Below are positions 33,052 to 49,715 of a stretch of DNA of 64,000 bases, in pieces. The DNA comes from Bradymonadia bacterium. Its GTDB lineage: Bacteria > Myxococcota_A > Bradymonadia > UBA7976 > UBA1532. A model generated the notes under the pieces. The model ran no database searches, had not been told where the DNA came from, and worked only from the letters and a program-made list of their open reading frames with translations. The stretch's first letter is position 1; each line of letters opens with the position of its first letter. The position numbers and the translations under genes are program-made. Location of the stretch: positions 3,186 to 67,185 of the forward strand of contig JBILLN010000017.1 of NCBI GenBank assembly GCA_044376085.1. The letters run 5' to 3'.

Positions 33052-36000
33052 TCAGTCGTCGTAGGGTTCGCTGACGCGGCGGAACATGCGGAACTGGCTG
33101 ATGAGGTCGCTGAAGTGACCGAGCTGGGCCCGGCGCTGCTCGAGCTCGGTCAGCGCGGCGGGCTCCGTCGGGTTCTGCTCCTCGAGCGCCGCGAGGGCGG
33201 CGGCCTGCTCGTTGAAGTAGGTCAGCAGCGACACGCTGATGGACTCGCCGTCGACGACCTGGGGCGCCACGTACGTCACCCGGGTGATCGGGTCGAGGTA
33301 CTTGACGACGGGCGTGTCTTCGGGGAGCTCCCGCGCCTCACCGGACCCCTCTTCGAAGAGCATGATGTAGTCGCGGAAGTCGGTCTCGCCGTCGAAGGAC
33401 GAGGAGTTGTAGACGGCCGACAGACCGAGCGTGCGCCAGAGCAGGGCAGGGGGCACCTGAGCGTCGATGCGCAAGGGCATTTCGGTGGGCGACGCCGCCT
33501 CGGCGGGCGCGCCGGGGTCGGCCTCGAAGCCCCAGGTCTGCGGATCGACCAGGTTTTCGGCCGTGACCCGGCCCTCGTCGTCCACGACCAGGCCGGTGTG
33601 GCTCAGGGTGCCGATGCCGAGGTAGGAGAACAGCATGTCCTTGGCCATCTTCACGAGCTCGGGGCGGAACAGCCGGTAGTAGTTGATGGAGAACCGCCGG
33701 CTGTCACCGAAGTCCGTGACGTTGAAGAAGTTCGTCGAGTCGTCGAGCAGGAACTGGAGGAACGCCGACTTGTCGAAGAACGTCCCGATGTAGTCGATGT
33801 TGTAGAGGTACTGGTCGTCGTACCGGAGGAACTGGTCACGCCCGAGGCCCTCGGGCACGTCCACGTACTGCTCACAGGTCTGTCCGGTCTCCGGCAGGAA
33901 GACCCCGCGGGTCGCGTCGAGGCAGTGCCGACCGGGGACCGGCGTGCCCATCACGCGCGAGATGAAGTTCAGGGACTCGAGCGCGGCCTTCAGGTAGTCG
34001 CGGCCGATCGCGGAGGTCTGGTTGCCGTAGACGTAGTACCGGACAGCGTAGGTCAGGTCGTCGATGAGGCCGGCCTGCCGCCCCATGAACCCGTTGACGA
34101 ACCCGCTCTCCATCCGCCCGCGCCGGAAGTTGTTGAAGAAGTAGTAGTTCCAGTAGCGGCTGATCGAGTTGTGGACGACCTCGTGGTTGCTCGAGCCCTG
34201 GTCGAACATCTTGCAGCGGGACCGGAAGAGATACGCGTGCTCGCAGTACGCATAGGGCACCTCCCGGGCAGTATGGAAGGTGACGTCCGGATCGCTGATC
34301 GAGTCGATGATCGCGGCTGTATTGGCCTGGATGCCGGCCGAACGCTCGCGGACGACCTCGTGCACGTCGGCGTCCTTGCGGGCCTTGAGGGCGTCGAGGT
34401 CGTCGTTGAGGAGCGACGGCACGGCGTCGGCGCCGTAGACGTAGGCGACGTAGAGGCCGAAGCCCGGGATGACCGGGAGCTTCACGCTGTCCTCGAAGAC
34501 CTCGATCTTGCGCGCATAGGCAGCCTTCATGGCGGCGTGGTCGTACTTGCCGAGGCCCTTGGTGTCGCTGTTGAAGCGCCCGTGGTAGTCCATGATGGTC
34601 GAGTAGGTGTACTCGGGGACGCGAGCCTCCGCGCGGTCGTCGATACCGTTGTCGTCGTTGTCCCCCGGGGCGATCTCGGCGACCTTCTTCCAGTACTCGT
34701 CCTGGTAGTTCAGCGCGTCGACGGAGCCCTCGAAGTTGTGCGTGAGGCCCATCGTGTGGCCGATCTCGTGCAGCGTCACCCCGCGGTAGATCTCGCGGCG
34801 GAGAATCTGGAAGAGCTCCTCGGGATCCCGGTCCTTGAGCTCGAGGGCCAGGCCGATCACCGCGTCGTCCATCATCTCGAAGGTGTCGATGCGGTGGTTG
34901 CCGAGCCAGGCATTGCGCTTTTCCATGCGCTCCGCGTAGGCACGCAGATCGGTCGCTGCCTCGGTGGCGGCCTGCTTCAGGGCCGGGCTGGGGCGATCGG
35001 CGGGCTCGCCGGCGTTGAAGACCGGGGCCAGGAGCTGCTGGAGCTCGTTCGGCACCATCATCGCCGCGAAGTCCGGATCCTCCATGGCCCGGGCGAGGCG
35101 GGCCTGACCTTCGCTCTGGACGGCCCGCTCGAGGGTGGCCGGTTTCGCCAGGGCGCGGACCGCCTTGAACTCGTCGCCCATCGCGCGCGGATCGACGCGT
35201 TTGCCGGGCTGCACCGCCGAGGGGACGAGCCCCATCTGGTTGCGGGCCTTCTGGCGGCGGGCCTCCGCTTTGGCGACGGTCGCAGCGGACAGGCCCTGAG
35301 TGGCCGTCTCCGTCCCGCGGCTGCGCTCCAGCCAATCGGAGACGTTCTTGCCCTGGAGGAGGTCGGCGAGGGCCAGGTCGCCGTTGATGGCGCGGACGGT
35401 ATCGACGGCGTTGCGGGCGTAGTTGTCGAGGGCGGCGCCGTAAATGTTCGCGTTGGCGCTGATGATGCGGCCGTTCTCACCATCCGTGCCCGAGGGACCG
35501 TACCCGAGGGGGCCGTCGGGCTGCTGCTCGTTGACCCAGTTCAAGAAGCTGAACCGGACGTCCCCGACCTTCTGGTACTGGAAGTAGTCGGCCTCGCCGG
35601 CGTCGAGGGTGGCGCGCTTGAGGGCCGCGCAGACGCGGTGCAGGTTGCCGGGGACGAGGACCTTCCGGAGGCGGGCGACCGCCGTGGCGTCGAAGTCCGT
35701 CGGTTCGTCGCCGGACAGGATGTGGGTCTGCGGCTTCGTTTCGTCGGCGACGAGGGCCGCCTCGACGTGGGGGTAGAACGCGGGGTGCTCGGTGAGGTAG
35801 TCGACCACGCCCCGGACGCCGCAGGTGTTCTCCCGAATCTGGTACATCCCCCGATGCTGGAGTTCGTCGCCTTCGATGAAGTAGTGGCGGCCGGGCTGGG
35901 CCTTGCTGTAGGCCTCGATCTCCGAGCGGAGGGCGGCATCGTCCCGACCGGTCCCGGCCCGGACGGCGTCCATCATGGCCGCGTCCCAATCCTGCGCGAT

Positions 36001-37578
36001 GCGGACCGTCTCGGCCTTGAGGTCTTCGGGGAAGTCGATGTTCAGGTAGTAGACGATGGGCCGCGGCTTCCGGTCGGCCATCGGGATGGCCTTGGGCTGA
36101 CCGTCGGTGCCGGCGACGCGGACGGGCTTCCCCTCGGCGTCGAGCACGATGGTGGGCTGGCCGTCTTCGCCGGGCTCGGTCTCGAACTCGTAGGCCGTCT
36201 GCCAGATGGGGTGGATGTTGACGAAGTACTGGCGCTGCTCGTCGCGACCCGCGCCGGTCTGGCGGTCGTATCCGGGGCGCTCCGTGCGGAAGAAGCCATG
36301 GCGCTCGAACTGCTGGAAGCTCGAGTCGTCGCAGTCGCGCTCGGTGTAGTACCCGGGGGCGAAGTAGTTATCGAGCGCCGTGAAGAGGTCCGGATTGCAG
36401 GCCACCTCGGCGAAGGGCACGGAGCACTCGCCGGGGCGCCCGGCCTGCGCGTCGTCGAACGTGCGGATGCAGGCTTCGTTCTCGGTGCACTCCGAGTCGG
36501 CGAGGCAGTTCGGCTGGCAGAGACCATCGCGGCAGGCGTTGCCGAAGCTGCACGCCGTCGAATCCGTGCAGCCGCGGCACAGGCCCTCGACGCACGTCAG
36601 CCCGTCCGAGCAGTTGGCGTCCGACGCGCACTGGCAGTTGGCGTCGACGCAGACGCAGAGGCCCTCCTGACACTCGAGGCCGTCCGGGCAGGCCGTCCGC
36701 TCGTCGCAGCTCCGGGACGGATCGTTGCTGCCGAACCGCTTGAGCGGGACGGGCAGGAACATCGTCTTCAGCGGCTTGCCATCGTCGTCGGTGTGCAGCA
36801 GCAGGTCGTCGTACTGGGTCGGCTCGAAGCGGGCCGACTCGACGTGGTCGATCTGCCAGAACGAGTGGCGAAGCCGAACGTCGGAGGAGGCGCAGCCCCA
36901 CTCGCCGTAGAGATAGCCGCACGTGAAGTCGTCGCCGACGATCCGCCGTGTGGTCATTTCGATGTAGCCGGGCTCGATGACCGGCTGGTGGGGCGAGAAG
37001 CGGTACTCGGTGTCGAGGTCCAGGCGAACGACACCGCCGACGACGGAGTTCACGAAGTTCAGGAACTCCCCGAAGTCCGCGGCACCGCCGACCGCGGTGT
37101 CGACCCTGATCCGGAAGTACTCGCGCTCGTCCCAGGGACGGTCCGAACTGTTCTCGCCGATGACGTTCGACTGCTCGCCGGTCGCCGAGTTGTAGCTGCG
37201 CTTGATGTCGAAGTGGCTGACGACGTCGAACATCGCAACGGGGTCGCCCTTGTAGTCGGACCCGGGCAGCGTGCGGTCTTCGTCGATGCCTGGCACGCCT
37301 TCGTGCGTGCGGTAGGCGATGAGTTTGTCCTCGCGGATCTCCCAGCGAATCTTCTCGATGTCCGCCTCGAGGCCGACGAACGCGCCCGAGAGGCCGGTGC
37401 CCGGATCGGACTCGACGATGGTCTGCCGGTAGTACCACTCCTTCTCGAAGAGGGACTTGGACAGATAGCCGGGCTGAACGGTGTTGATGTCCCCGACGGG
37501 CTCCGCACAGGCGGCCGCCAGGAAGCTCACGGCGAGGGCGGCGAGGCCGCGGGTCGTGCGATTGAGATGAGCGATCAT
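33052..37578 (-). CDS. Giant metzincin-type zinc-metalloprotease lipoprotein (about 1508 aa) with an inserted myxobacterial cysteine-rich repeat module.
   Basis: The signal peptide with lipobox is MIAHLNRTTRGLAALAVSFLAAAC, with GAGGGAG upstream. The zinc site is HEIGHTMGLTHNF (HExxHxxGxxH), and the Met-turn is STIMDY. The Cys-rich insert is CDERTACPDGLECQEGLCVCVDANCQCASDANC... The start was set inside the 1701-aa ORF. Confidence 0.7.
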   Translation of the reverse strand: MIAHLNRTTRGLAALAVSFLAAACAEPVGDINTVQPGYLSKSLFEKEWYYRQTIVESDPGTGLSGAFVGLEADIEKIRWEIREDKLIAYRTHEGVPGIDEDRTLPGSDYKGDPVAMFDVVSHFDIKRSYNSATGEQSNVIGENSSDRPWDEREYFRIRVDTAVGGAADFGEFLNFVNSVVGGVVRLDLDTEYRFSPHQPVIEPGYIEMTTRRIVGDDFTCGYLYGEWGCASSDVRLRHSFWQIDHVESARFEPTQYDDLLLHTDDDGKPLKTMFLPVPLKRFGSNDPSRSCDERTACPDGLECQEGLCVCVDANCQCASDANCSDGLTCVEGLCRGCTDSTACSFGNACRDGLCQPNCLADSECTENEACIRTFDDAQAGRPGECSVPFAEVACNPDLFTALDNYFAPGYYTERDCDDSSFQQFERHGFFRTERPGYDRQTGAGRDEQRQYFVNIHPIWQTAYEFETEPGEDGQPTIVLDAEGKPVRVAGTDGQPKAIPMADRKPRPIVYYLNIDFPEDLKAETVRIAQDWDAAMMDAVRAGTGRDDAALRSEIEAYSKAQPGRHYFIEGDELQHRGMYQIRENTCGVRGVVDYLTEHPAFYPHVEAALVADETKPQTHILSGDEPTDFDATAVARLRKVLVPGNLHRVCAALKRATLDAGEADYFQYQKVGDVRFSFLNWVNEQQPDGPLGYGPSGTDGENGRIISANANIYGAALDNYARNAVDTVRAINGDLALADLLQGKNVSDWLERSRGTETATQGLSAATVAKAEARRQKARNQMGLVPSAVQPGKRVDPRAMGDEFKAVRALAKPATLERAVQSEGQARLARAMEDPDFAAMMVPNELQQLLAPVFNAGEPADRPSPALKQAATEAATDLRAYAERMEKRNAWLGNHRIDTFEMMDDAVIGLALELKDRDPEELFQILRREIYRGVTLHEIGHTMGLTHNFEGSVDALNYQDEYWKKVAEIAPGDNDDNGIDDRAEARVPEYTYSTIMDYHGRFNSDTKGLGKYDHAAMKAAYARKIEVFEDSVKLPVIPGFGLYVAYVYGADAVPSLLNDDLDALKARKDADVHEVVRERSAGIQANTAAIIDSISDPDVTFHTAREVPYAYCEHAYLFRSRCKMFDQGSSNHEVVHNSISRYWNYYFFNNFRRGRMESGFVNGFMGRQAGLIDDLTYAVRYYVYGNQTSAIGRDYLKAALESLNFISRVMGTPVPGRHCLDATRGVFLPETGQTCEQYVDVPEGLGRDQFLRYDDQYLYNIDYIGTFFDKSAFLQFLLDDSTNFFNVTDFGDSRRFSINYYRLFRPELVKMAKDMLFSYLGIGTLSHTGLVVDDEGRVTAENLVDPQTWGFEADPGAPAEAASPTEMPLRIDAQVPPALLWRTLGLSAVYNSSSFDGETDFRDYIMLFEEGSGEARELPEDTPVVKYLDPITRVTYVAPQVVDGESISVSLLTYFNEQAAALAALEEQNPTEPAALTELEQRRAQLGHFSDLISQFRMFRRVSEPYDD

Positions 37579-37592
37579 TGGTCGGGTCTCCC

Positions 37593-40500
37593 TCACTTCC
37601 CGAGGTCCATGACGGAGCGCAGGAGGCGCATGTCGTCGATGGTGCTGAGGTAGAACTCGAGGGTCTGGTCGGCGTTCTCGAGGTCGTTCTCGCGTTGCGG
37701 ATTCTCCGGATCGGCGTCGAAGGCGCGCTTGGCGGCGTTCCAGTCTTCGGCGGCCTGCTTGGCGACGCGGAGGAGTCGGTAGGCGACGGAGAGCCCGTCG
37801 CGGGTCTGCGGGGCCTGGAAGATCTGGCCGGTCTTGGGGTTCTCGAACGTCGCGACCAGCGCCCCGTCCGCGATGGCCCGATCGTCGCCCGAGCCCTTCT
37901 CCTGCACGGCGATGTACTCGTAGAAGTCGAGCTTGGTATCCCCGGGGCGCGAGTTGAGCTGGGTCCCGGCGAACAGCCAGTACCGCATGAGGTCGAAGGG
38001 CGTGTTCGTCCAGATCTGCACGGGCTCGATCTCGTCGCCGTTCTCGTCGACCGGCGCCTCGGAGTGGCCGGGCAGGCGGCCGTCGACGGTGGAGAAGTCG
38101 AACATCGTGGGGAAGGTGTGCACCGCCTCGCCCTTCTCGTTCTTCGTCGTCGACCACTGGAACGCCCGGTGTCCGAAGTTGCCGAGGCCGGCGTCGAGGA
38201 GGTCGAGCGTCAGGTCGAGCAGGCGGTCCTTGAAGACGTCGTAGAACCCGAAGCGGAGGTCGATCTCGCCCGCGGCGTTGACCGGCGGGCGGATGAAGAC
38301 GTTGCCGGCGTTCAGGAGCGGGATGATGAAGTTCTGCTTCTCGAAGAACGAGCCCATGTACTCGTACTTGGTCTGATAGTCGTCCGAGAGGTCGATGTAC
38401 ATGTCGCGGCCGACGCCCAGGGGGAGTTCCATCCGGTCACAGGCCTCGCTGCGGAAGTAGTCCGGGTTGAACCCGAAGGCCCAGTACGGGACGTAAGTGA
38501 TCTGCTCCTTGAGGGAGTTGCCCGTATTGGCCTTGCAGTACCAGCCCGGCTCGGGCGCGCCGACGACCTGCATCGTGAAGTCGGTGGCGATCATGGCGGC
38601 GCGCAGGAGGTCCTCGGTCAGGTCCATCGGGGTGCCGTCGCGATTCACGTACTGCTGGAAGAACGAGTAGTGCTTGTAGGGGTAGTTCAGGTAGGGCAGC
38701 AGGCGGCCCATGCGGCTGAAGAACCCGAGATAGAACTGGTACTCGTCCCGACCGCGGCGCCAGGAGTTGAAGAAGTAGTAGTTCCAGTAGCGCTGGATGG
38801 CCGAGCGGACGGCTTCTTCGTGGGTGGGGCCCTCGTCCCAGGTGCGGCACTTGGGGTCGCGACCGTTGAAGTAGTCGAAGCAGTAGAAGTACGGCACCGT
38901 CCGGTCGCGCCAGTAGCCCTCCGCGCCGGCGTCCGGGCTCTCCGCGAAGCGCTTGCCGTTCTCGCGGATGCCTTCGCGCGCCTCGGCGATGACCTCGTCG
39001 ACGAGACGGTCCTCGCGGCGGGTCAGGTTTGCGGTGCTGCCGCCGAGAAGCTGCGGGATCTTGGTGTAGTGGTCGTACTCGAGGTGGAGATCCAGCCGGC
39101 TGGGGACCTCCACGCTCTCGTCGAAGGCCTCGATGAGCCCCGTGTACGCGAACTTGATGGCGGCCTGGTCGTACTTGCCGAGGCCGTGGAAGTCCGAGTT
39201 GAAGCGGGCGCCGTAGTCCATGATCGAGGTGTAGCGGTACTCGGGCTGAAGGTGCTCGTCGCGCTCCTCGTCCGTGTCGTAGCGCTCCTCGAGGTCCCAG
39301 AACGTGTCGAAGTAGTTCAGCGCGTCGTGCGAGGCCCGGAAGTTGTGGGTCATGCCCAGCGTGTGGCCGATCTCGTGGAGCATCACGCCGCGGAAGATCT
39401 CCTTGCGGAGGTCCTCGTAGACCTCGACCGGGTCCCGCCCCTTGAGGCTGAGCGCCCGGCCGATGACCGCGTCGTCGTAGAACTCGGGCAGGGTGATGTT
39501 GCGCTCGATGTAGAAGTCGGCGCGCTTCTGCATGTGTTCCGAGATGGCGGCGGGGTTGGCGGCGACCTCGATGGTGGCCTCGAGGAGGTCCTCCGGCATG
39601 TCCTCGCCCTCGTGGGCGTTGGGGTCCCACTGGAACAGGCGGTAGAGCATCGACATCACGGGGCGGGGGAGCATGCGGGTGCGGAGCTCCGGGTTGTCCC
39701 GCAGGCGCTGCTTCATGAGGTCCATCGGATCGGGTCCGGCGGCCTGGGCGAACATGGGGTCGTCCGCCCGCTTCAACTCCGACCGCGTGACCATGTCGTG
39801 GGACATGCGGCTCAGGTCGACCTTGCCGTCGGCCGAGCGGAAGCTCTCGGGGTTGGCGGCCTGGAACGTCGAGAAACGCTGCTTCAACGCGGCGCGCTGG
39901 GCCTCCGTGACGGTGAGGGGCTGGTCGGCCACGCTCTTGTTCCGAAGGTCGAGCCAGTCGGTGATCGTCTTGCCCGAGGCGATGTCCTCGAAGGCGTCGT
40001 CGATGTCACCATTGAGGAAGCGGACGAGGTCCATCGAGTCCCGGGCGTAGCCGTCGACCGCCGCGCCGTACACGTAGGCGTTGCCGCTGATGATGCGGCC
40101 CGTCTCGGCGTCGGGGCCGGAGGGGCCGAAGCCGAGGGGACCGGAGGGCTGGTCTTCGTTGACCCAGTAGACGAAGTTCCAGCGAACGTCACCGACCTGC
40201 TGGTAGGTGAACTTCTCGAGGCCGCGGGCGCGGCTCTCGGCCGTCAGCGCGGAGCAGACGGGCTCGAGGTTGCCGGCGAGGATGTTGTTGGGGTTGCCGG
40301 CATCCACCGCGTCGCTGTCGAGGTCGTCGGCGTGCGTCACCGAACGGACGACGTCGACGAGTTCGGGGACGCGCTCGAGATAGGCGTCGATGACCTCGCG
40401 GCGGCAGTCGTTGTCGTCGATGCGGTAGGCCGCGCCGTGACCGGTCTGCTTCTTCAGCTCGGCGCGCAGGGCCTCGGGCGACTTGCCCTGAGCCGAGGCG

Positions 40501-41792
40501 ATGGCATTGACGAAGAGGCGGTCCCAGTCGGCGGCGATCTCCTGGGCGGTGCCCTTGAGGTCCTCGGGGAAGTTCACGTTCAGGTGGTAGACGATGGGCC
40601 GCACCTTGCGGTCCTTGACCGGGATGACCACCGGATTCCCGTCGGCATCCCGCTTCAGTTTGGGCTTGCCGGCCTCGTCACGGGCAATGACCGGCGCGCC
40701 CGTCTCGTCCTCGGTCATCTCCCACGCGTAGACCTGTTCCCAGATCTTGTGGTGGTTGGCGTAGAAGTTGCGCAGCTCGTCGTGCCCGTTGGGGAGCCGG
40801 CGGTTGGCGTCGTAGCGCTCCGTGCGGAAGAACCCGAAACGACCCATCTGGTTGTGGGTCAGCGGCTTGCAGTCCTCTCGGCGGTACTTGCCGCGGAGCT
40901 GCTCGAGCACGTCGTCGGTGCACTCGACGTCGACGTAGTCGACCCCGCCGTCCGGCTTGGGGACCGAGACGGTCAGCGAGTACATGATGGCCCCGTTCTC
41001 GTCGCGGACGAACTCGCGGTCGAGGTAGGAGCGCGGCTCGAACTGCGCGGCGTCCTCGGGGTCGATGCGCACGAAGCTGTGGCGCACCTTGACCTCGCCG
41101 AGACCGCAGGAGTTCCGGGTGTTCGTGGACGTCCGGTAGAAACCGTACTCGATGAAGCAGGTGTAGCCGCCGTCGGTGACGGTGTACGACGTCGTGAACG
41201 AGATCGTCCCGTCCTCCAGATCCGCCTGGAAGTGGTCCGGATTGGCGATCTCCGTCTCACGGGCCCAGTAGGTGCCCGTCGAGAACGTCGCGAACAGCTT
41301 GGCGAAGTCCTGACCGACCGCCGCCGCCGACGACCAGTCCGCCCGGAAGAAGTCGCGCTCGAACCAGGGACGCAGCGAGCTGTCCTCGTTCAGGACGTTG
41401 CTCTGGGTGCCGTTGGCGCTGTTGTAGTCGCGCACGATGTCGAAGTGTTCGACGCCGCTGACGCGCAGGATGGTGTCGCCCTCGAACGTGGCGCCGGGCC
41501 GCGTCTCGTCCTCGTCGAGGCCGCGGATGCCCTCGTGCGTCCGGCGGGCGTGCAGCGCATCGCCGTAGAACTCGAACTTGACCTTCTCGACCTTGCCCTC
41601 GAGGCCGACGAAGCCGATGCCGACGTCCGGCGGGACGTCGACGATCGTCTGGCGGTAGTACCACTCGCCATCGAGCATCGCCTTCTTGAAGTAGTGCGGT
41701 TGGACCCGGTTGACGTCCTTCACCTCTTCCGCACACGACGGCAGAAGAGAGATGAGCGCGGGTACGACGGCGGCCTGCCAGAAACGTCGCAT
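37593..41792 (-). CDS. Giant metzincin-type zinc-metalloprotease lipoprotein (1399 aa), a paralog of the downstream gene.
   Basis: The signal peptide is MRRFWQAAVVPALISLLPSC (lipobox). The zinc site is HEIGHTLGMTHNF, and the Met-turn is TSIMDY. It is colinear with gene 1 over most of its length (EWYYRQTIV, QSNV, FFRTER, LGFGPSGPD, RYWNYYFFN). Confidence 0.7.
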   Translation of the reverse strand: MRRFWQAAVVPALISLLPSCAEEVKDVNRVQPHYFKKAMLDGEWYYRQTIVDVPPDVGIGFVGLEGKVEKVKFEFYGDALHARRTHEGIRGLDEDETRPGATFEGDTILRVSGVEHFDIVRDYNSANGTQSNVLNEDSSLRPWFERDFFRADWSSAAAVGQDFAKLFATFSTGTYWARETEIANPDHFQADLEDGTISFTTSYTVTDGGYTCFIEYGFYRTSTNTRNSCGLGEVKVRHSFVRIDPEDAAQFEPRSYLDREFVRDENGAIMYSLTVSVPKPDGGVDYVDVECTDDVLEQLRGKYRREDCKPLTHNQMGRFGFFRTERYDANRRLPNGHDELRNFYANHHKIWEQVYAWEMTEDETGAPVIARDEAGKPKLKRDADGNPVVIPVKDRKVRPIVYHLNVNFPEDLKGTAQEIAADWDRLFVNAIASAQGKSPEALRAELKKQTGHGAAYRIDDNDCRREVIDAYLERVPELVDVVRSVTHADDLDSDAVDAGNPNNILAGNLEPVCSALTAESRARGLEKFTYQQVGDVRWNFVYWVNEDQPSGPLGFGPSGPDAETGRIISGNAYVYGAAVDGYARDSMDLVRFLNGDIDDAFEDIASGKTITDWLDLRNKSVADQPLTVTEAQRAALKQRFSTFQAANPESFRSADGKVDLSRMSHDMVTRSELKRADDPMFAQAAGPDPMDLMKQRLRDNPELRTRMLPRPVMSMLYRLFQWDPNAHEGEDMPEDLLEATIEVAANPAAISEHMQKRADFYIERNITLPEFYDDAVIGRALSLKGRDPVEVYEDLRKEIFRGVMLHEIGHTLGMTHNFRASHDALNYFDTFWDLEERYDTDEERDEHLQPEYRYTSIMDYGARFNSDFHGLGKYDQAAIKFAYTGLIEAFDESVEVPSRLDLHLEYDHYTKIPQLLGGSTANLTRREDRLVDEVIAEAREGIRENGKRFAESPDAGAEGYWRDRTVPYFYCFDYFNGRDPKCRTWDEGPTHEEAVRSAIQRYWNYYFFNSWRRGRDEYQFYLGFFSRMGRLLPYLNYPYKHYSFFQQYVNRDGTPMDLTEDLLRAAMIATDFTMQVVGAPEPGWYCKANTGNSLKEQITYVPYWAFGFNPDYFRSEACDRMELPLGVGRDMYIDLSDDYQTKYEYMGSFFEKQNFIIPLLNAGNVFIRPPVNAAGEIDLRFGFYDVFKDRLLDLTLDLLDAGLGNFGHRAFQWSTTKNEKGEAVHTFPTMFDFSTVDGRLPGHSEAPVDENGDEIEPVQIWTNTPFDLMRYWLFAGTQLNSRPGDTKLDFYEYIAVQEKGSGDDRAIADGALVATFENPKTGQIFQAPQTRDGLSVAYRLLRVAKQAAEDWNAAKRAFDADPENPQRENDLENADQTLEFYLSTIDDMRLLRSVMDLGK

Positions 41793-41907
41793 TCTTCACA
41801 CCTCGTGGGTTGGCATTCGAGCGGCCCCCCGTTTGGGACCCGCGCCACCCCCCCTGCATGCCGAAGCGTGCATGGATTGACGCGAATCAAGGGCCGGGGG
41901 CGACGTA

Positions 41908-41924
41908 GGCAACTCCCGTGCCGC
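41908..41924 (-). promoter_or_regulatory. Sigma-54 (-24/-12) promoter upstream of metalloprotease gene 2.
   Basis: The minus-strand sequence is GCGGCACGGGAGTTGCC, i.e. GGCACG-N4-TTGC with canonical GG/GC spacing. It lies about 115 nt upstream of the ATG at 41792. An A-tract is immediately upstream and two G8 tracts lie further upstream. Confidence 0.5.
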
Positions 41925-42014
41925 TTTTTTGGCAAGCGAAAACGCGCGGTCGGGGGGGGCGGTCCGGTCGGAGCGGCGCCGGGGGGGGCGAACGTGAAGA
42001 AACGAACGGCGGGT

Positions 42015-43028
42015 TCAGGTCTCGGGGACGGGGTCGGCAGCGGGTCCGCCGCTGAGGGCGGGATCGGGATCGCGGCTGGGGGCGCGGCGACCGTTCGGGC
42101 GGTGGCGGGCGAAGTACCAGGCCGCCGAGCAGGCGGTCTTGACCGTGTCGGCCACGCCCATGCCCTCCAGGTTGGGCCAGAACAGATTGCACTCGCCGCA
42201 GGGTTCGATCTCCTTGCGGCGACCCGTGCGGTGGTACTCGCGGTACTTCGAGGCGGTATTGCCCCGGTACACCTCGAGCACGGACTGCTCGCGCACGTTG
42301 CCCCAGGTGTACTCGCCCTCGTGGTCCTGGCAGCAGAGCGTGACCTTGCCGTCGCTCAGGATGTCGAGGCGGGTGATGTGTTCGCAGCCGTAACTCGGGA
42401 CGGGGAACGCGGAAGGGATGTCGCCCTTGTAGTTGAACTGCCCGACGATGAAGGGCTGCACCCCCATGCTTTCGCAGTAGTCCGAGAAGGCGTCCTGCTC
42501 TTCCAGCGTGGTGTCTTCCATCCGGACCATGCGGAACTGGATCTTGGGGGCGACCTTGCTGCGCCGGACGGGGTCGACCAGGTACTTCATGTTGTCGAGC
42601 GTGCGCTCGAGCTTGAAGCCCATGATGTTCTTGTACCGGACGGGATCGAGGGTGTTCAGGCTGATGGTCAGGCGGTCGACGCCCCCGATGGAGACGAGCT
42701 CGTCGATGCGCTTCGGCACGAGGCCGTAGCCGTTCGAATACAGGCCGAGGCGGGTCTTCGGCAGGCGACTGCGGATGTGCTGGAGCCGACCGATGATGCG
42801 GGGGTCGACGAAGGGCTCGCCGTTGAGGAACGGTTCGATCTCTTCGAGCGGGAAGGCCCGGCAGTCCTCGACGATCTTCTCGAAGAGGTCCTGGTCCATG
42901 TGGAACTTGTCGCGAGCCTTGAAGTTGTACGGGCAGAACGGGCAGGCGGCGTTGCAGCGGCTGGTCGTCTCGATGGAGACCATGCGCGGGTACTCACCGC
43001 CATCCATGACGCGTTGACGGAAGATCAT
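42015..43028 (-). CDS. Radical SAM enzyme with a SPASM/twitch-like C-terminal Cys-rich region.
   Basis: The radical SAM box is SIETTSRCNAACPFCPY (Cx3Cx2C). The C-terminal Cys residues are LCCQDHEG ... CGECNLFWPN. The composition (rich in K, N, Y, F) is atypical for this window. The start is at MIFRQRVMDGG, with GAGGA 7 nt upstream. Confidence 0.75.
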   Translation of the reverse strand: MIFRQRVMDGGEYPRMVSIETTSRCNAACPFCPYNFKARDKFHMDQDLFEKIVEDCRAFPLEEIEPFLNGEPFVDPRIIGRLQHIRSRLPKTRLGLYSNGYGLVPKRIDELVSIGGVDRLTISLNTLDPVRYKNIMGFKLERTLDNMKYLVDPVRRSKVAPKIQFRMVRMEDTTLEEQDAFSDYCESMGVQPFIVGQFNYKGDIPSAFPVPSYGCEHITRLDILSDGKVTLCCQDHEGEYTWGNVREQSVLEVYRGNTASKYREYHRTGRRKEIEPCGECNLFWPNLEGMGVADTVKTACSAAWYFARHRPNGRRAPSRDPDPALSGGPAADPVPET

Positions 43029-43071
43029 GTGGACGTCCTCGCGGAGAGTGAGATGAATCGAGGGCCGTCGA

Positions 43072-43086
43072 GCAAGATGCGTGCCC
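43072..43086 (-). promoter_or_regulatory. Sigma-54 (-24/-12) promoter upstream of the radical SAM gene.
   Basis: The minus-strand sequence is GGGCACGCATCTTGCT, i.e. GGCACG-N4-TTGC. It lies about 45 nt upstream of the ATG at 43028, within the 157-nt gap after the GT4 gene. Confidence 0.5.
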
Positions 43087-43185
43087 GGGACCCGAGGTTG
43101 CGGGTCGTCGTTTCCGGAGTACGCCTGCTCCAGATCGACCTCCCCCTGGCGCACGGATACCGCAGGTCGACGCGGGTATGCGAGG

Positions 43186-44361
43186 TCAACGCCGCGCGGC
43201 CAGCCGCTCCTCGTAGAAGGCCCGCAGGCGCTCGCCCCGCGCGTCCCAGGTCAGCGAGGCCGCCAGCGTCCGGGCGCCCCGGGCGAGACGTGCCCGGAGG
43301 TCCGGGGCCTCGAGCAGGCCGCGCAGGGCGCTCACCAGAGCGGGGACGTCGTCGGGGTTCACGAGGCGCGCGTTCTCGCCGTCGCGCAGAAGCTCCGTCG
43401 TATCGGGCAGGTCCCCGGCCAGCACGGCGCGGCCGGCCGCCAGATAGGTGAAGAGCTTCAGGGGCATGACCGTCGTCCCCTCCTCGGTGAGGGGGCGGCG
43501 GCTGGGCGGAACGAGCAGCACGTCGGCCGCCAGGTGGGCCTGCTCGAGGCGCTCACCCGTGAGAAATCCGAGGAAACGCACGTTCTCGAGGCCCTGGGCA
43601 GCGGCTTTCATCTCGCGCGCGTCGTCGGTCCCGTCGTGGCCGACGAAAACGAAGCGGACGTCCGGCATCCGGCGGGCGGCGTCGATGAAGAGGTCGCAGG
43701 CTTTGGCGCGCCCGAGCCGGCCCGCGTACACGGCGGTGGGCCCCTCGGAAAGTCCGAGGGCGGCGCGCGCCGAGGCGGGGTCGCGGTCCGTCGCGAGGAG
43801 TCGGGCATCGAACCCGTTGTACAGCGTGACGACCTTCTCCGGGGGCACGCCGTCTCGAACGAACTGCTCCCGGACGAGTCGGGAGTGGACGATCAGCCCG
43901 GCGAAGGCGCGCAGCGGCGTCAGGTGGCGAAAGACCGGGCGCACGGCGGGGAACTGGGCCGTCAGCGGGCGATAGGTCTCGAAGAAGAGCGGTCGTCGCG
44001 CGCCCAGCATCGCCAGGGACGGCAGGAGCGTGCGGGTGTGGACGAGGTCGTAGGGGCGTCGCAACGCCGAGCCCGTGGCCAGCGCGCCGCCGGCGAGCTT
44101 CGTCAGCAGGCGCGGGCCGCTCAGCGCGCCCGGAACGGGGCAGAGTCGAAACTCGCAGCCCGTGGCGTAGTGGGCCCTCAGGGCGTCGTGGAGCGCCGCC
44201 CGGGCGGAGGCGTCCCGGACCGCCGCGGCGTTCGGCGCAACGGGGAAGTACAGGTCGACGGCCACGCCCGTGCGGCCGAGCGCCGACAGGGCGTTGACGA
44301 ACTGAATCGTGTCCGCCCCGTGGCCGGGCAGGACTTCGTCGGTCAGAAAGGCGATGCGCAT
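43186..44361 (-). CDS. GT4-family glycosyltransferase (GT-B fold).
   Basis: The N-terminal domain is MRIAFLTDEVLPGHGADT. The C-terminal nucleotide-sugar domain is EEGTTVMPLKLFTYLAAGRAVLAGDLPD (an EX7E-like region). The start was set at MRIAFL inside the longer ORF. Confidence 0.7.
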   Translation of the reverse strand: MRIAFLTDEVLPGHGADTIQFVNALSALGRTGVAVDLYFPVAPNAAAVRDASARAALHDALRAHYATGCEFRLCPVPGALSGPRLLTKLAGGALATGSALRRPYDLVHTRTLLPSLAMLGARRPLFFETYRPLTAQFPAVRPVFRHLTPLRAFAGLIVHSRLVREQFVRDGVPPEKVVTLYNGFDARLLATDRDPASARAALGLSEGPTAVYAGRLGRAKACDLFIDAARRMPDVRFVFVGHDGTDDAREMKAAAQGLENVRFLGFLTGERLEQAHLAADVLLVPPSRRPLTEEGTTVMPLKLFTYLAAGRAVLAGDLPDTTELLRDGENARLVNPDDVPALVSALRGLLEAPDLRARLARGARTLAASLTWDARGERLRAFYEERLAARR

Positions 44362-44396
44362 GGCGCGGCGCGCATGCGACGATCGTGCCAGCGACG

Positions 44397-45374
44397 TCAG
44401 GGGATGTCGGACGCCAGCCACGCCGCGAGGGGCGCGAAAACCGCCCGCTCGGCGGGCTCGCTGATGAAGAGGTCCGCGTGAGCCATCGGCGTCGCGGCGT
44501 CGCCGGCGACGACCACGCGCCGGGCGTGCGCCGGTGCACCGATGGTCTCGTCCCCCGTGCGAACGACCGCCTCGGGAACGATGCCGTCGGCGTTGGCGAC
44601 GATCGTGAGGAGGGGGTGCGCGACCCGGGCGAGATCGGTGGTCAGGTTTCGCCGATCGAGCACGAGGTCCCGCTGGCGGATCCAGCGGGCGATCTCGAAG
44701 TTGATGCGCGCGACGGGGTCGTCGACGGTGTTCACCAGGCTTTCGGGTCGGCTGAGGTCACAGATGCGCGGGTTCAGGTAGAGGTCGAGCGCGCCGGGCA
44801 CGCGGGCGATGGCGGGCAATGCCAGCCGCGCCAGGGTGCGGGTGCCGCGCATGGCGGGCAACCCGAGGGGAAGCTGTGCCAGCGCCCGCACCAGCGGATG
44901 CGCCGTCGTCCAGGAGAGGGGGCCGCCCAGATTCACGAGGCGGCGGAGGGGCGCGTCGGGACGCCACGCCGCCTGCATGAAGACGTAGGTCGCGCCGAGG
45001 CTGCATCCGATGGCGTCCACCGGGCCGGGCGGCAGCGCGCTGTGGCGGGGGACCGCGTCGAGGACCGCCCCCAGATCCACGACGCCCACGTCCGCGAGGC
45101 CGAACCCCCTGCGCCGGCCGCGACCGGGGATGGGGTGTGCGTGACCCTGCCCGCGCAATTCGACGCAAAAGACCTCGAACCCGCGGTCTGCCAGGTATGC
45201 GGCCAAGGGTCGACCCGTGGGGTGGTACCCCAGGATGTACGCGTTCATGGCGAAGCCCGGCACGATGACCACGGGGCGGCGGTGCAGGTCGAGGCGCTGC
45301 GGATCGCGATAGCGGTGCAGGGCGAGGCGCCAGCCAGCCCCGTTCTCGGTGAAGTAGGTCCGTCGTTCGAGCAT
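44397..45374 (-). CDS. Alpha/beta-hydrolase fold protein (esterase/lipase/thioesterase-like).
   Basis: An HG-type oxyanion region is VVIVPGFAMN. The nucleophile elbow is GCSLGA (GxSxG). C-terminal Asp/His candidates are present. The start was set at MLERRTYF inside the 763-aa ORF. Confidence 0.65.
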   Translation of the reverse strand: MLERRTYFTENGAGWRLALHRYRDPQRLDLHRRPVVIVPGFAMNAYILGYHPTGRPLAAYLADRGFEVFCVELRGQGHAHPIPGRGRRRGFGLADVGVVDLGAVLDAVPRHSALPPGPVDAIGCSLGATYVFMQAAWRPDAPLRRLVNLGGPLSWTTAHPLVRALAQLPLGLPAMRGTRTLARLALPAIARVPGALDLYLNPRICDLSRPESLVNTVDDPVARINFEIARWIRQRDLVLDRRNLTTDLARVAHPLLTIVANADGIVPEAVVRTGDETIGAPAHARRVVVAGDAATPMAHADLFISEPAERAVFAPLAAWLASDIP

Positions 45375-45572: not shown

Positions 45573-45866
45573 ATGGACGACCTGATGCGCGTGCCGATCT
45601 TCCAGCGCCTGAAGCACATCCTGGTGACCGACTTCGCCAAGGACGAGGCCCTCGTGACGCCGTCCGCGACGTTGCGCGGGACGCTGATGATGGACAGCCT
45701 CGACCTCGTCGATCTCGTGTTCTTCCTCCAGCGGGAGTTCCACCTCGAGGCCCGGCTCGAGGACCTTCGCGACGTGAAGTCGCTCGACGCGCTCGTGACC
45801 TACATCGCCCGCAGCGCCGGCTCGGCGACGAGCCCGGCGACGACGCCGGCAGCCGCCGCGGGCTGA
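45573..45866 (+). CDS. Acyl/peptidyl carrier protein.
   Basis: It is a 97-aa acidic protein with the phosphopantetheine attachment motif LMMDSLDLVDLVFFLQ (DSL). GGAGG is 5 nt upstream of the ATG. Confidence 0.7.
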   Translation: MDDLMRVPIFQRLKHILVTDFAKDEALVTPSATLRGTLMMDSLDLVDLVFFLQREFHLEARLEDLRDVKSLDALVTYIARSAGSATSPATTPAAAAG

Positions 45867-46001
45867 GGCGGACCCGGCGCCGGGGCCAAGGAGCCGCGTC
45901 GGCCGTTGCCCGTCGGGCTGGCTCCGGCGTACCATGCTCCCCGACGCCGGGGCGGACCCGGCCAGGCTTCTCTCCACGGACCCCGGACGGTTCCCCAAGG
46001 C

Positions 46002-49000
46002 ATGCAGCCAGGCCAGGTCGTCGGCGACCGCTACCGCATCGAGCAACTCATCGGCGAGGGCGGCATCGGCCAGGTCTTCCGCGCCCGCGACCTCATGACC
46101 CGCGAGCTCGTGGCCCTGAAGGCGCTCCGCCCCGAGTTCGCGCGAGACGCCCGCATCAAGCGACGTTTCATGCGCGAGGCCCGGGCCGTCGCGCGCCTGC
46201 AGCATCCCCACATCGTACGGCTCTTCGCGTGCGGGGACAGCGACGACGCCCCGTACATCGCCATGGAGCTCATCGAGGGTCAGGCCCTCTCCGAGCACCG
46301 GGACCAGGGCCTGCATCTCGATACGCTGCTCCAGGTCATCGACCAGACGCTCGCAGCGCTCGCGTTCGCTCACGCCCGGGGCGTCGTCCATCGCGACGTC
46401 AAACCCGAGAACATCCTGGTCTCGTGGGTCGACCGCGGTCGGCGTCCGTTCGTCAAGTTGCTCGACTTCGGGTTCGCGCGCGTGGAGGGCGACCAGGACA
46501 TCAAGCTCACTCAGGTTCAGGGCGATGCCTTCGGAACGCCGCTGTACATGGCGCCCGAGCAGGCCTCGGCCAAGGGCAACGTCGGGCCCGAGACGGACCT
46601 CTACGCCATCGGCGTGATTCTGTTCGAGTTTCTGTCCGGCCAGCCGCCGTTCACGGGGGCACACGGGATGGCCGTCGCCCTCAAACACGTCATGGAGCCC
46701 GTCCCCGATCTGCGCGCGCGGGCGGGGCTGGCCATGCCCTTCGGACTCGAGGACGTCGTCCGCCGCGCCCTCGAAAAGGAGCCCCGCAGCCGGTGGCGAA
46801 CCGCTGCGGACCTGCGTCGGGCACTCGCACAGTTTTCCCAGGGCACGGAGTCGGCCCCGCCCGAGGACGACGCCGACGACCAGACCATGGCCGGTCCCGC
46901 CGGCCCGCCACCGCCCGTTTCACCCTTGGCCGGCGCGGCGCCGGCGATGCCCTTCGACGACGGGCCGCGCAGCGACCCCACCCTCGTCACGGGGCTCGGT
47001 CGGGGCCCGACGACCGGCGCGCATCCCGTCCCCCTGTTTCGCGCGCTCGAGCCGGAGCCCTCGGGCGCCGGTGTCGAGGAAGCCCTGGTGGCCGATCCGG
47101 ACACGCAGGCCCTCGTCGGTCGAGAAGCCGAACTCATGTGGCTGTGGGAGCGGGCCCGGGAGGTCTGCGACCGGGGGGAGGCGCGCATCGTCCTGCTGGG
47201 CGGCACGCCGGGCATGGGCAAACGTCGGCTCCTGAGCTGGCTCGAGGACCAGGTCGCGGAGGGAGCGTGGATGCTCCACGTCAGCGGGAGCCGACCGACC
47301 GCGCCCGACGCCGGCCCTCGGACGGACCTGCGAGCCCTCCTGGCCGCGGTTTTCGGCAGCCTGCCGGCCGAGCGCCGGCCCGCGGAGCAGATCATCCTGC
47401 AGATGCTCGAGCGGTGGGCGGGCATGCCCAGCGGGTTGCCCCGGCCCGAGCCGGCCATGCTGGGCGTCCTGGCGACGACGATGGCAGCCTGGCTGTGCCC
47501 GGCGCCCGGCGCGCTGGCCACGGACGAGATGGGAGAACTGCGCGGCGAAGCGCTGTACGCCCGCGCCCTGGAACTGCTGCAGATCGCCGCCCGCGAGCGG
47601 CCGGTGCTGCTGACCGTCGAGTCCATCGAGGACGCCGGCCACGAGACGTGCGGTTTCCTGGCCTGGGCGAGTCGATGGTTGCGGCGGGTCGAACTGCCCC
47701 TGCTCGTGGTGGCCGGGTACACCGTCGACGATGGCGGAGCAGCCCGGCACCCGATGGCCGGCGCCTTTGTCGGCTCGCTGTCCGCCGTCGGCGGCCCCGA
47801 GGTGCAGTCCCTCCTGCTCAGGCCCCTGGACGCGGCCACGGTCGCCGACCTCCTGGCCAGCATCGCACCGATCGACGCGACCGTCGCCGAAGCCATCGCG
47901 CGGCGGACCCATGGCAACCCGTACTTTGCCCGGGAACTGCTGCTGTGGGCCTCGCAGGCCGGGGAACTCGTCACGGAGCGCGGCCGGCTGGTGCTGTCGC
48001 GCAGCGCGCGGCCCCAGGCGTGGCCCACCTCGCTGCCGGAGACGCTGCTCCTGCGGACGGACGAGACGCTGGGGCGCAAGCCGGGGGGAGACGCCGCGCG
48101 CCGCGTTTTGGAGTGCTCGGCCTTGCTCGGCGAGCACTTCGAGTACGAGCTGCTCGTGGCGTTCATGGTGCCGTTGGTGGGCGACCGCGCCACGGTGGAG
48201 CGCGGCATCGAGCTTCTGCTGCACTGCAACATCTACGGGGAGTCGGGCACGCTGGAGGGCGATCGGCTCTTTCTGCGGCACGACGTGATGCTCGGTCCCC
48301 TGCGGGAGCGCCTCGCCGCCGGCGGGCAGCTCCCCCGACTCCATCGGCTGGCGGCCGATACGATGCTGCGGATCTACACCCGCAACCCCACCCCCTTCGC
48401 CGAGCCGATCGGCGCACATCTCGAGGCTGCGGGTGCGACGACGGAGGCGGCGCAGCAGTTCCAGCTCGCCGCGGCCGCGCGCCGCGAACACGGACAGCTC
48501 GCCGCCGCGGCGGATCTCCTCGAACGCGCGGACGCGCTGCTGGCGCAGTCGACGGAGGTCGGCGCAGACCTGAAACGTGCCGCGGGCTGGCTCGACCTGG
48601 GGGAGCTCGAGCTGCGGCGCGGGCAACAGCCTCGGGCACGAACCCTGGCGGGCCGGGTCTACACCTGGGCGCGGCAGAACGGTCAGGCGGGTCTCGAGGG
48701 CCGGGCGCTGCTGCTCGTCTCGGATCTCTTTCGTCGCCAGAACCAGCTCGGCGAGGCCGGGCGCGGGTACGCGCAGGCCCGGGCGGTTTTCGAACGGGCC
48801 CAGGATCGCGCCGGATACGCTCGATCGCTGCTGGGGGCGGCCATGGTGGAGCGGAGCCTCGGACGGGTGGAGTCGGCGGTCGAACTGTTCGAACTCGCCC
48901 GTCAGGCGATGGAGGCGGCCGGCGACCATCACGGCCTGGCCCGGGCCTGGCGGGGGCAGGGGGAGATTGCGCTGCGGATGGGGGAACTCCTGGCGGCGCG

Positions 49001-49715
49001 GGACCGCCTCGAGCTCGCACGGCAGGCCTACGGAACCGCCGGTGATACGCACGGCGTCACTTTTTGTCACTGGCTCCTGGGGGAGACGTTCCGGTTGCTC
49101 GGGCAGCCGGATCTGGCGGTCTCCTATTTCGAGGCGTCGCGTCGCGGGCACGAAGTGCTGCGGGACGACCTCGGGCGCGGGCGGGCCCACCTCTCGCTGG
49201 CGCGGCTCTTCCGGGACCGCGGTCTCTGGGCGGATGCCGAGTCGCACTTCGAGGGCGCGGTGCTGGCGTACGACGCGGCCGGCGATGCGGCCCGTGCGGC
49301 CGCTGCGCGCGCCGAACTCGGTCTCGGGGCGCTCCTCCAGCGCCGGTTCGACGCCGCGCGCGACCACCTCGGAACGGCGCTGGCGCATGTGCTGCAGTCG
49401 GGAGACGCCGACCGGGCGGTCGTGCTGCGGACCTCGCTGGCCTGGGTGTACGCCGAGCAGGGCGACGAAGCGCTCGCCGAACCGGAACTCCGGGCGGCCC
49501 TCGCCGCGGACGCCGCCCGACCGGTCGTGGATCCGGACTTCGCGCGAGCCCTCGAGGGCATCGCCGAGGTGGACCTCTACCTCGGCCGTCGACACCGGGC
49601 GGGCGCGCTGCTGCAGCGGGCCGCGGACGTCGCGGCCGCACTCGGTCAGCCGGCGGAGGCCGACCGCCTGCTGCGCAAACTGACGCTGCTCGGCCCACGG
49701 GGAGGACGGGGATGA
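46002..49715 (+). CDS. Ser/Thr protein kinase fused to a STAND-type NTPase and TPR repeats (PknK/AfsR-like architecture).
   Basis: The kinase motifs are GEGGIGQVF, VALKAL, HRDVKPENIL, DFGFAR and APEQ. The P-loop NTPase is LLGGTPGMGKRRLL. The C-terminal half is long TPR/alpha-solenoid. Confidence 0.8.
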   Translation: MQPGQVVGDRYRIEQLIGEGGIGQVFRARDLMTRELVALKALRPEFARDARIKRRFMREARAVARLQHPHIVRLFACGDSDDAPYIAMELIEGQALSEHRDQGLHLDTLLQVIDQTLAALAFAHARGVVHRDVKPENILVSWVDRGRRPFVKLLDFGFARVEGDQDIKLTQVQGDAFGTPLYMAPEQASAKGNVGPETDLYAIGVILFEFLSGQPPFTGAHGMAVALKHVMEPVPDLRARAGLAMPFGLEDVVRRALEKEPRSRWRTAADLRRALAQFSQGTESAPPEDDADDQTMAGPAGPPPPVSPLAGAAPAMPFDDGPRSDPTLVTGLGRGPTTGAHPVPLFRALEPEPSGAGVEEALVADPDTQALVGREAELMWLWERAREVCDRGEARIVLLGGTPGMGKRRLLSWLEDQVAEGAWMLHVSGSRPTAPDAGPRTDLRALLAAVFGSLPAERRPAEQIILQMLERWAGMPSGLPRPEPAMLGVLATTMAAWLCPAPGALATDEMGELRGEALYARALELLQIAARERPVLLTVESIEDAGHETCGFLAWASRWLRRVELPLLVVAGYTVDDGGAARHPMAGAFVGSLSAVGGPEVQSLLLRPLDAATVADLLASIAPIDATVAEAIARRTHGNPYFARELLLWASQAGELVTERGRLVLSRSARPQAWPTSLPETLLLRTDETLGRKPGGDAARRVLECSALLGEHFEYELLVAFMVPLVGDRATVERGIELLLHCNIYGESGTLEGDRLFLRHDVMLGPLRERLAAGGQLPRLHRLAADTMLRIYTRNPTPFAEPIGAHLEAAGATTEAAQQFQLAAAARREHGQLAAAADLLERADALLAQSTEVGADLKRAAGWLDLGELELRRGQQPRARTLAGRVYTWARQNGQAGLEGRALLLVSDLFRRQNQLGEAGRGYAQARAVFERAQDRAGYARSLLGAAMVERSLGRVESAVELFELARQAMEAAGDHHGLARAWRGQGEIALRMGELLAARDRLELARQAYGTAGDTHGVTFCHWLLGETFRLLGQPDLAVSYFEASRRGHEVLRDDLGRGRAHLSLARLFRDRGLWADAESHFEGAVLAYDAAGDAARAAAARAELGLGALLQRRFDAARDHLGTALAHVLQSGDADRAVVLRTSLAWVYAEQGDEALAEPELRAALAADAARPVVDPDFARALEGIAEVDLYLGRRHRAGALLQRAADVAAALGQPAEADRLLRKLTLLGPRGGRG

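Follow-up and report, generated by a model that had tools for sequence, protein, structure and literature searches.

The window analysed here, a stretch of 64,000 nucleotides, contains a gene for a radical SAM enzyme whose C-terminal domain resembles the twitch domain of BtrN. On balance we favour a reading in which this native, BtrN-type enzyme works with a GT4 glycosyltransferase and acts on the head group, a sugar or cyclitol, of a glycolipid or glycan of the cell envelope, and not on a peptide. The reading is built on the fold, the cluster ligands, the conservation of the family, the linkage to GT4 and the lack of a precursor peptide, all of which were observed; what the enzyme acts on, and which reaction it carries out, are inferred. 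The gene is native and well conserved in uncultured myxobacteria, and its product, though uncharacterised, is a rather ordinary representative of an established enzyme class, best filed as an uncharacterised twitch-domain radical SAM enzyme acting on carbohydrates or cyclitols. The gene and its upstream neighbours are:

42015–43028, minus strand: 337-aa radical SAM enzyme whose auxiliary-cluster domain is of the twitch type (open reading frame, Pfam and alignment).
43186–44421, minus strand: GT4 glycosyltransferase directly upstream, likely true start 44361, the probable functional partner (Pfam Glyco_trans_1_4, Glycos_transf_1 and Glyco_transf_4).
44397–45374, minus strand: alpha/beta hydrolase, 325 aa, upstream of the GT4 gene (Pfam Abhydrolase_1; NCBIfam matches weak).
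45573–45866, plus strand: acyl carrier protein (ACP)-like gene, 97 aa, with a DSLD motif, divergently transcribed (Pfam PP-binding).

The reading frame, its CX3CX2C motif, the cysteine-containing strings LCCQDHEG and CGECNLFWPN and the lengths of the two flanking gaps, 222 nt (41793–42014) and 157 nt (43029–43185), were all recorded in a preliminary description made from the letters of the window, and each was confirmed. The start codon is backed by an alignment of 26 homologs that opens at the same methionine. The CX3CX2C motif is present as CNAACPFC at residues 25–32, and its cysteines (C25, C29 and C32) are invariant in 27 sequences; together with a Pfam Radical_SAM match (PF04055) of 58 bits against a gathering cut-off of 29.5 and with the fold matches given below, this places the protein in the radical SAM superfamily. 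The Pfam SPASM model also matches, with 43 bits against a gathering cut-off of 21.5. Among the 25 best of 28 NCBIfam matches, every model stays below its cut-off; the top one is a tungsten-cofactor maturase (92 bits, cut-off 380) that covers the N-terminal half only.

The invariant cysteines of the 27-sequence alignment are C25, C29, C32, C56, C215, C232, C233, C277 and C280. When the alignment is taken down to 25–30% identity, C232/C233, which lie in LCC(M/Q)D, C277 and C280 are still invariant and C215 is nearly so; C56 is an extra cysteine, invariant among the 27 close Myxococcota homologs and not across the wider clade. C215, C232, C277 and C280 correspond one-to-one to BtrN cysteines 169, 187, 232 and 235 (chain 4m7s_A), the matching being made through a fused homolog that was itself aligned to the window protein, and their spacing of 17/45/2 compares with 18/45/2 in BtrN. 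BtrN has a single auxiliary cluster ligated by four cysteines and carries out the two-electron oxidation of an aminocyclitol (PMC9012708). A full SPASM domain holds two auxiliary clusters and is recognised by the seven-cysteine pattern CX9-15GX4C ... CX2CX5CX3C ... C. The window protein has the first half of this pattern as CX11GX4C, followed only by CX2C; family alignments show no conserved CX5CX3C and no terminal cysteine, even though the Pfam model matches. Lacking CX2CX5CX3C, the C-terminal domain is predicted to be a one-cluster twitch domain of the BtrN type, and the enzyme not to be a SPASM enzyme with two auxiliary clusters. The second Fe-S site suggested in the preliminary description stands on four conserved cysteines, and of the SPASM/twitch domain named with it the twitch form is kept, with a single auxiliary motif ending in CX2C.

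Structural comparison leads to the same relative. In searches with the family profile, BtrN is well ahead of every other solved match (E 2.8e-21), with both the core and the C-terminal domain aligned, and the second-best PDB sequence match is the peptide epimerase YydG/EpeE (E 5e-9). The 27-sequence alignment also gave a confident AlphaFold model (pLDDT 86.4, pTM 0.84), whose top Foldseek match in the PDB is again BtrN, with E 4e-13, a TM-score of 0.78 normalised to BtrN and an rmsd of 3.9 Å; SuiB, MoaA, BlsE and DesII follow. Identity to BtrN is only about 18%, and the reaction type is therefore not confidently transferable. An ortholog of BtrN would have 2-deoxy-scyllo-inosamine activity and would be clustered with 2-deoxy-scyllo-inosose synthase and its aminotransferase. 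No 2-deoxystreptamine genes occur among the recurrent neighbours of the family, and on this ground and that of the low identity, orthology with BtrN is rejected.

More than 200 homologs with 55–96% identity are present in Myxococcota metagenome-assembled genomes (MAGs); almost all are unnamed or automatically named “MoaA” or “radical SAM”, and no curated family claims them. A search of a species-representative genome collection returned 326 relatives, of which the best 80 all come from MAGs: Myxococcota (Polyangiaceae, “Myxococcales” and “Deltaproteobacteria”) at 49–96% identity, Haliangiales and Kofleriaceae at 37–39%, Acidobacteriota at 30–39% (Bryobacterales at 30–33%), and Omnitrophota and a Woesearchaeote at 31–33%. 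Several MAGs carry two paralogs. An exhaustive profile search gave 660 clusters at 50% identity (E <= 1e-30), among which the orthologous group of the window has a single representative and many others have N-terminal extensions or are large fusion proteins. The family is under strong purifying selection. The closest relative, in Myxococcota MAG.78 (locus L005, 96% identity), lies in what is essentially the same locus as in the window.

The preliminary description had set the gene apart by its composition and called it possibly horizontally acquired. Its GC content is indeed lower, at 0.653 where the window averages 0.707 (z = -1.8, the 4.6th percentile of same-length windows), and this would be the signal of a recently acquired foreign gene. 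The lowest-GC stretch of the window (0.635) lies elsewhere, however, and GC by codon position is 0.61, 0.43 and 0.92 in the radical SAM gene, 0.64, 0.40 and 0.95 in a neighbouring metalloprotease gene, with a third-position value of 0.90 in the neighbouring GT4 gene. Third positions are thus as GC-rich as those of the neighbours and the deficit falls in positions 1 and 2, so the low GC reflects the encoded amino acids. The protein is rich in K, N, Y, F, I and D, as had been noticed (fraction 0.288, third of 42 window proteins; mean 0.188, sd 0.057), but it is not depleted of arginine (9.2%) or proline (7.4%), and its contrast with its surroundings does not extend to the two adjacent metalloproteases (0.315 and 0.281), which share its composition and its GC profile. 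Orthologs at 55–96% identity occur throughout the Myxococcota, and synteny is kept in L005 and in a second close relative, L006. With native third positions and a lineage-wide distribution, recent acquisition is highly improbable, and the idea is abandoned here.

Peptides and adjacent proteins had also been considered in the preliminary description. Were the enzyme a peptide or protein maturase of the SPASM type, its substrate could be a ribosomally synthesised (RiPP) precursor encoded elsewhere or the giant metalloproteases whose genes lie directly downstream of the radical SAM gene. The passing Pfam SPASM score fits such a role, as do the many RiPP maturases among SPASM enzymes (PMC9012708). 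Clustering of short open reading frames from about 75 loci, however, revealed no conserved frame of 18–110 aa within 700 bp of the gene, bearing out the earlier statement that no precursor peptide is visible; the recurrent short-frame clusters are only Arg/Ser/Ala-rich off-frame or antisense translations of neighbouring genes. RiPP-maturase models of NCBIfam score 16–24 bits against cut-offs of 300–650, and the protein has a single auxiliary-cluster motif in place of the seven-cysteine SPASM pattern. The arrangement of the ACP gene, the hydrolase, GT4 and radical SAM genes and two metalloprotease genes was found by tblastn to be conserved only in L005 and L006, the two closest genomes. As neighbours confined to this lineage, the metalloproteases are unlikely to be substrates, contrary to the earlier suggestion, and they were rejected as conserved partners. 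Glycan and lipid genes prevail in the neighbourhoods of the wider family, and a role as a peptide or protein maturase is improbable, even with the one opposing observation from fused relatives that is given below.

Genes in all loci were called with a caller based on GC at the three codon positions and clustered, and cluster representatives were annotated. GT4 is the dominant neighbour of the radical SAM gene: by Pfam it accounts for 18 of 117 immediate neighbours, and its share of genes falls from 14% at offset 1 to about 2% from offset 3 onwards. Of 73 loci, 22 have a GT4 gene next to the radical SAM gene or fused with it, and 43 have, no more than three genes away, a gene recognisable as one for envelope glycans or lipids. 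Since about 40% of loci have no recognisable gene of this kind within that distance, the linkage is frequent and not obligate. In Bryobacterales, a distant homolog forms the C-terminal domain of a single open reading frame of about 1050 aa with the order GT4-GT4-radical SAM/twitch, and a database search found more than 60 clusters at 90% identity with the full architecture, including Lewinella sp. JB7 (Bacteroidota) and Chitinivibrionales. BtrN is the only PDB match of the fused radical SAM domain (E 1.7e-22). These fusions link the clade to GT4 chemistry independently. We found no description in the literature of the family or of the GT4-radical SAM fusions.

The operon of the fused relatives also encodes a second twitch paralog, a GT9 glycosyltransferase, a 200-aa protein and a B12 radical SAM protein that matches TIGR03975, “RiPP maturation radical SAM C-methyltransferase”, with 649 bits against a cut-off of 282. 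This protein of a RiPP C-methyltransferase class counts against our preferred reading and for peptide maturation, and a glycosylated-peptide product is possible for the distant fused clade.

The radical SAM gene also recurs in cassettes of the following kinds:

GFO/IDH/MocA oxidoreductase, radical SAM enzyme, GT4, LPG_synthase_TM, PMT_2 (GT-C) and a TM-sulfatase-type protein.
MMPL, radical SAM enzyme, PMT_2, phosphodiesterase, LPG_synthase_TM, DXD glycosyltransferase and GT4.
GT4, Polysacc_deac_1, radical SAM enzyme, CrtC-like lipocalin, CDP-alcohol phosphatidyltransferase and LPG_synthase_TM.
SIS, GHMP kinase and NTP transferase, as in GDP-heptose synthesis, with GT4 and PMT_2.

In NCBIfam, the flippase-like membrane protein (LPG_synthase_TM) is closest to HpnL and the MMPL protein to HpnN (194 bits), and the CDP-alcohol transferases best match PIP, archaetidylinositol-phosphate and DIPP synthases; all of these partner-family matches (HpnL, HpnN, PIP synthase and MshA) fall below the curated cut-offs. 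A myo-inositol-1-phosphate synthase (332 bits) lies within 1–5 kb in four loci (L017, L059, L061 and L062), and 15 loci have this synthase, an inositol-type CDP-alcohol transferase or both. Of the substrates considered in the preliminary description, the enrichment of GT4, the fusions and the cassettes favour a glycan or lipid built by the neighbouring GT4.

Sulfatase-domain proteins in some of these cassettes, the automatic annotation of homologs as “MoaA” and weak pVip matches in PADLOC might together suggest a housekeeping or otherwise known enzyme, whether MoaA, an anaerobic sulfatase-maturating enzyme (anSME), PqqE or a viperin-like defence enzyme. Such an assignment is hardly credible. 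NCBIfam scores are 54 bits against 231 and 45 against 284 for MoaA, 30 against 381 for PqqE and 18 against 180 for viperin. MoaA (GTP 3',8-cyclase) was rejected on these equivalog cut-offs and on the four aligned cysteine ligands of the window protein, as against the three-cysteine cluster with an open Fe site in MoaA; membership of such a housekeeping family, which had been named in advance as evidence against a distinctive role, was thus not borne out. A sulfatase-maturase function, also raised earlier, fails on the single auxiliary motif, on the absence of any anSME model from the 25 best of 28 NCBIfam matches and on the lack of the (C/S)xPxR formylglycine motif in the neighbouring sulfatase-domain proteins. 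A defence system was set aside, as PADLOC gave only weak, generic viperin-core matches.

Within the window, only the GT4, hydrolase and ACP genes accompany the radical SAM gene, and no inositol or flippase genes were found in the 64 kb. The hydrolase gene overlaps or abuts the start of the GT4 gene and so is probably in the same operon; it stands beside GT4 only in L005 and L006. The ACP-like gene is conserved in the same two loci, and its product scores 44 bits with NCBIfam ACP models, below the cut-off. The combination of GT4, hydrolase and ACP hints at an acylated glycoconjugate.

The data presented above have led us to propose a model whereby a [4Fe-4S] cluster on the N-terminal CX3CX2C motif would cleave SAM to yield the 5'-deoxyadenosyl radical, while a second [4Fe-4S] cluster would be fully ligated by C215, C232, C277 and C280. 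The enzyme would work with the GT4 encoded just upstream, and its substrate would be the sugar or cyclitol head group that this partner installs on an envelope glycolipid or glycan. By analogy with BtrN, the most likely chemistry would be abstraction of a hydrogen atom from a hydroxyl-bearing ring carbon, after which one electron would pass to the auxiliary cluster to leave a keto-sugar or inosose, a net two-electron oxidation.

It is possible, with a distinctly smaller probability, that the same scaffold acts on a glycoconjugate with different chemistry, as a radical epimerase or as a ring-contracting or rearranging enzyme in the manner of HpnJ or calditol synthase, following a glycosyltransferase and a deacetylase. 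NeoN and AviX12 are radical epimerases and serve as models for the first form. The hydrogen atom could be donated by a cysteine that is not a cluster ligand, either the second of the CC pair or, in the close family, C56, and donors of this kind would point to epimerase chemistry; the rank of YydG/EpeE as the second-best PDB sequence match fits with this. For ring remodelling, the set of glycosyltransferase, deacetylase, radical SAM enzyme, HpnL-like and HpnN-like proteins mirrors the hopanoid HpnI/K/J/L/N module, and contraction of a lipid-linked hexose ring after glycosylation has been proposed for HpnJ and Cds (PMC13459092). Against both forms, the closest homolog by sequence and by fold, BtrN, is a dehydrogenase, and a fully cysteine-ligated auxiliary cluster is a feature tied to two-electron oxidation in that enzyme (PMC9012708). 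HpnJ (TIGR03471) is not among the 25 best of the 28 NCBIfam matches of the window protein, and no hopanoid or tetraether genes were seen.

A more far-reaching and rather unlikely reading would make the family the radical SAM step of an undescribed bacterial pathway in Myxococcota for glycosyl-inositol envelope lipids of the GPI, PIM or mycothiol kind. On this view, GlcN-inositol would be assembled on a phospholipid by a GT4 of the PIG-A/MshA kind together with a de-N-acetylase, and its cyclitol or aminosugar ring would next be oxidised or rearranged by the BtrN-like enzyme. Flipping by the HpnL-like protein, extension by the GT-C transferase and export by MMPL would follow. The GT4-GT4-radical SAM fusions of Acidobacteriota and Bacteroidota would be a condensed form of the same chemistry.

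The preliminary description had also credited the gene with a sigma-54 promoter of its own. Two elements bear on this claim:

43072–43085, minus strand: sigma-54-type -24/-12 core GGCACGCATCTTGC, whose end lies 43 nt before the start codon (ATG) of the radical SAM gene.
41909–41922, minus strand: the other sigma-54-type core, GGCACGGGAGTTGC, within the 222-nt gap that follows the radical SAM gene.

The pattern GGCAC-N5-TTGC has exactly two matches in the 64 kb against 0.47 expected, a number reached in 8 of 100 shuffles, and both copies are on the minus strand, one upstream of the radical SAM gene and the other upstream of the next gene. The intergenic spacers of the window are poorly conserved even against L005 and L006, promoter-like elements excepted. 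The 14-mer at 43072–43085 is identical in L005, the 96% relative, amid a diverged spacer; the element is absent from L006, where the gap between the GT4 and radical SAM genes is shorter. In this genome a putative sigma-54 promoter of its own is plausible for the radical SAM gene, which may also be co-transcribed with GT4. All three loci (the window, L005 and L006) keep the 41909–41922 element in front of the metalloprotease gene. This copy is probably used by that gene, which would then form a transcription unit of its own. A search of the flanks with Rfam for riboswitches or other RNAs gave nothing at E <= 0.1.

About 165,000 genes encode SPASM/twitch radical SAM enzymes, and for most of these no substrate is known (PMC9012708). 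The present analysis moves a tightly conserved Myxococcota family out of the default annotation of “peptide maturase or MoaA” and into the small group of twitch enzymes that modify sugars or cyclitols, with concrete partner candidates: the adjacent or fused GT4, the deacetylase and the inositol-lipid genes. Unassigned SPASM/twitch proteins are very common, yet the GT4 fusion and the association with inositol-lipid genes provide a testable lead, and if the link holds, myxobacteria and acidobacteria would be expected to use radical chemistry on the head groups of their envelope glycolipids. For the window itself, the outcome is a corrected annotation from which horizontal transfer and metalloprotease substrates have been removed.

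Comparison with known systems places the enzyme more closely. The SPASM maturases of RiPPs and sulfatases (SuiB, PqqE, AlbA and anSMEcpe) share with the window protein the radical SAM core and CX11GX4C, but in the window protein the CX2CX5CX3C motif is cut to CX2C, and the window locus has no RiPP recognition element, precursor peptide or nearby sulfatase of the formylglycine type. The HpnJ and calditol synthase (Cds) pathways have a logic in common with the loci described here, in which a glycosyltransferase places a hexose on a lipid, a deacetylase possibly acts and the ring is finally reshaped by a radical SAM enzyme, and HpnL-like and HpnN-like genes occur in the neighbourhoods of the window family as they do with HpnJ. 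HpnJ, however, is of the type with a B12-binding domain, whereas the window protein has no N-terminal extension.

Several cassettes resemble the PIG-A/PIG-L, MshA/MshB and PimA-type pathways in combining myo-inositol-1-phosphate synthase, CDP-alcohol transferases like PIP or DIPP synthase, GT4 and a polysaccharide deacetylase, to which a flippase-like protein, a GT-C transferase and a TM-sulfatase-type transferase are added; the resemblance is limited by matches that all lie below family cut-offs and by the absence of these genes from the window. No pathway of these three types is known to involve a radical SAM enzyme. Inositol-lipid gene sets like those of the cassettes have been described (PMC9246714).

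The nearest known enzyme is BtrN, the 2-deoxy-scyllo-inosamine dehydrogenase of the butirosin pathway (PDB 4M7S/4M7T), with which the window protein has in common the radical SAM core, the twitch domain and the four aligned cysteines (C-17/18-C-45-C-2-C). Besides the low identity, the window protein differs in being about 70 residues longer, through a C-terminal helix and a basic tail, and its family, unlike BtrN, has an invariant CC-x-D signature and, among close members, the conserved C56. BtrN belongs to an aminoglycoside cluster, whereas the window family sits in envelope glycolipid and glycan loci of Myxococcota; BtrN acts on a hydroxylated six-membered ring, a class of substrate in keeping with the glycosyl and inositol setting of these loci.

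Several further features lie in the window:

33052-41792 (-): tandem pair of paralogous Met-zincin (DUF4953) genes, downstream of the radical SAM gene; products of about 1400-1500 aa each
41909-41922 (-): sigma-54-type promoter-like core preceding the second Met-zincin gene
45906-53269 (+): two tandem genes for Ser/Thr kinase-AAA_16-TPR proteins of about 1200 aa, directly past the acyl carrier protein-like gene
1736-3916 (-): gene for a TM plus sulfatase-domain protein

Ser/Thr kinase-AAA_16-TPR genes also adjoin the locus in L005, one of two homologous loci in other genomes that share the window's arrangement. The sigma-54-type core before the second Met-zincin gene is kept in the window and in both of these loci (L005 and L006). 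Both Met-zincin paralogs have lipoprotein-like N-termini.

Homologs of the radical SAM gene at other loci lie within distinct gene sets:

L060:4261-6634, L058:11479-13854, L032:3440-5781, L081:1446-3148: genes for a SIS isomerase, a GHMP kinase and a nucleotidyltransferase, adjoining the GT4/radical SAM pair
L078:176-7062, L080:5949-13523, L082:3337-10861, L084:7068-14279: conserved Bryobacterales operon with a GT4-GT4-radical SAM fusion
L062:1-20400 (also L059, L061, L017): dense inositol-lipid-like cluster around the radical SAM gene

The first corresponds to the genes of GDP-heptose synthesis and is seen at four loci, with just the kinase and nucleotidyltransferase identified at L081. The L062-type cluster includes myo-inositol-1-phosphate synthase and a pair of CDP-alcohol phosphatidyltransferases, of which one is DIPP-synthase-like, together with a PLD-type transferase, NTP_transf_3 and a PfkB kinase. 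GT4, Polysacc_deac_1, a CrtC-like lipocalin and a pair of LPG_synthase_TM proteins also belong to it. Besides the fusion, the Bryobacterales operon encodes GT9, a second twitch radical SAM protein, an uncharacterised 200-aa protein and a B12 radical SAM protein belonging firmly to TIGR03975 ("RiPP C-methyltransferase"); glycosyltransferases are mixed here with a nominal RiPP enzyme. Several MAGs each carry two radical SAM paralogs in separate cassettes (L023/L050, L024/L048, L064/L068, L018/L060, L052/L056), one copy usually beside MMPL/PMT_2/GT4 and the other without recognisable glycan neighbours.

The sulfatase-domain protein of the window shares 34% identity with sulfatase-type proteins within radical SAM cassettes at other Myxococcota loci. 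Because the (C/S)xPxR formylglycine motif is present in none of these proteins, they look like LtaS/EptA-type transferases rather than sulfatases.
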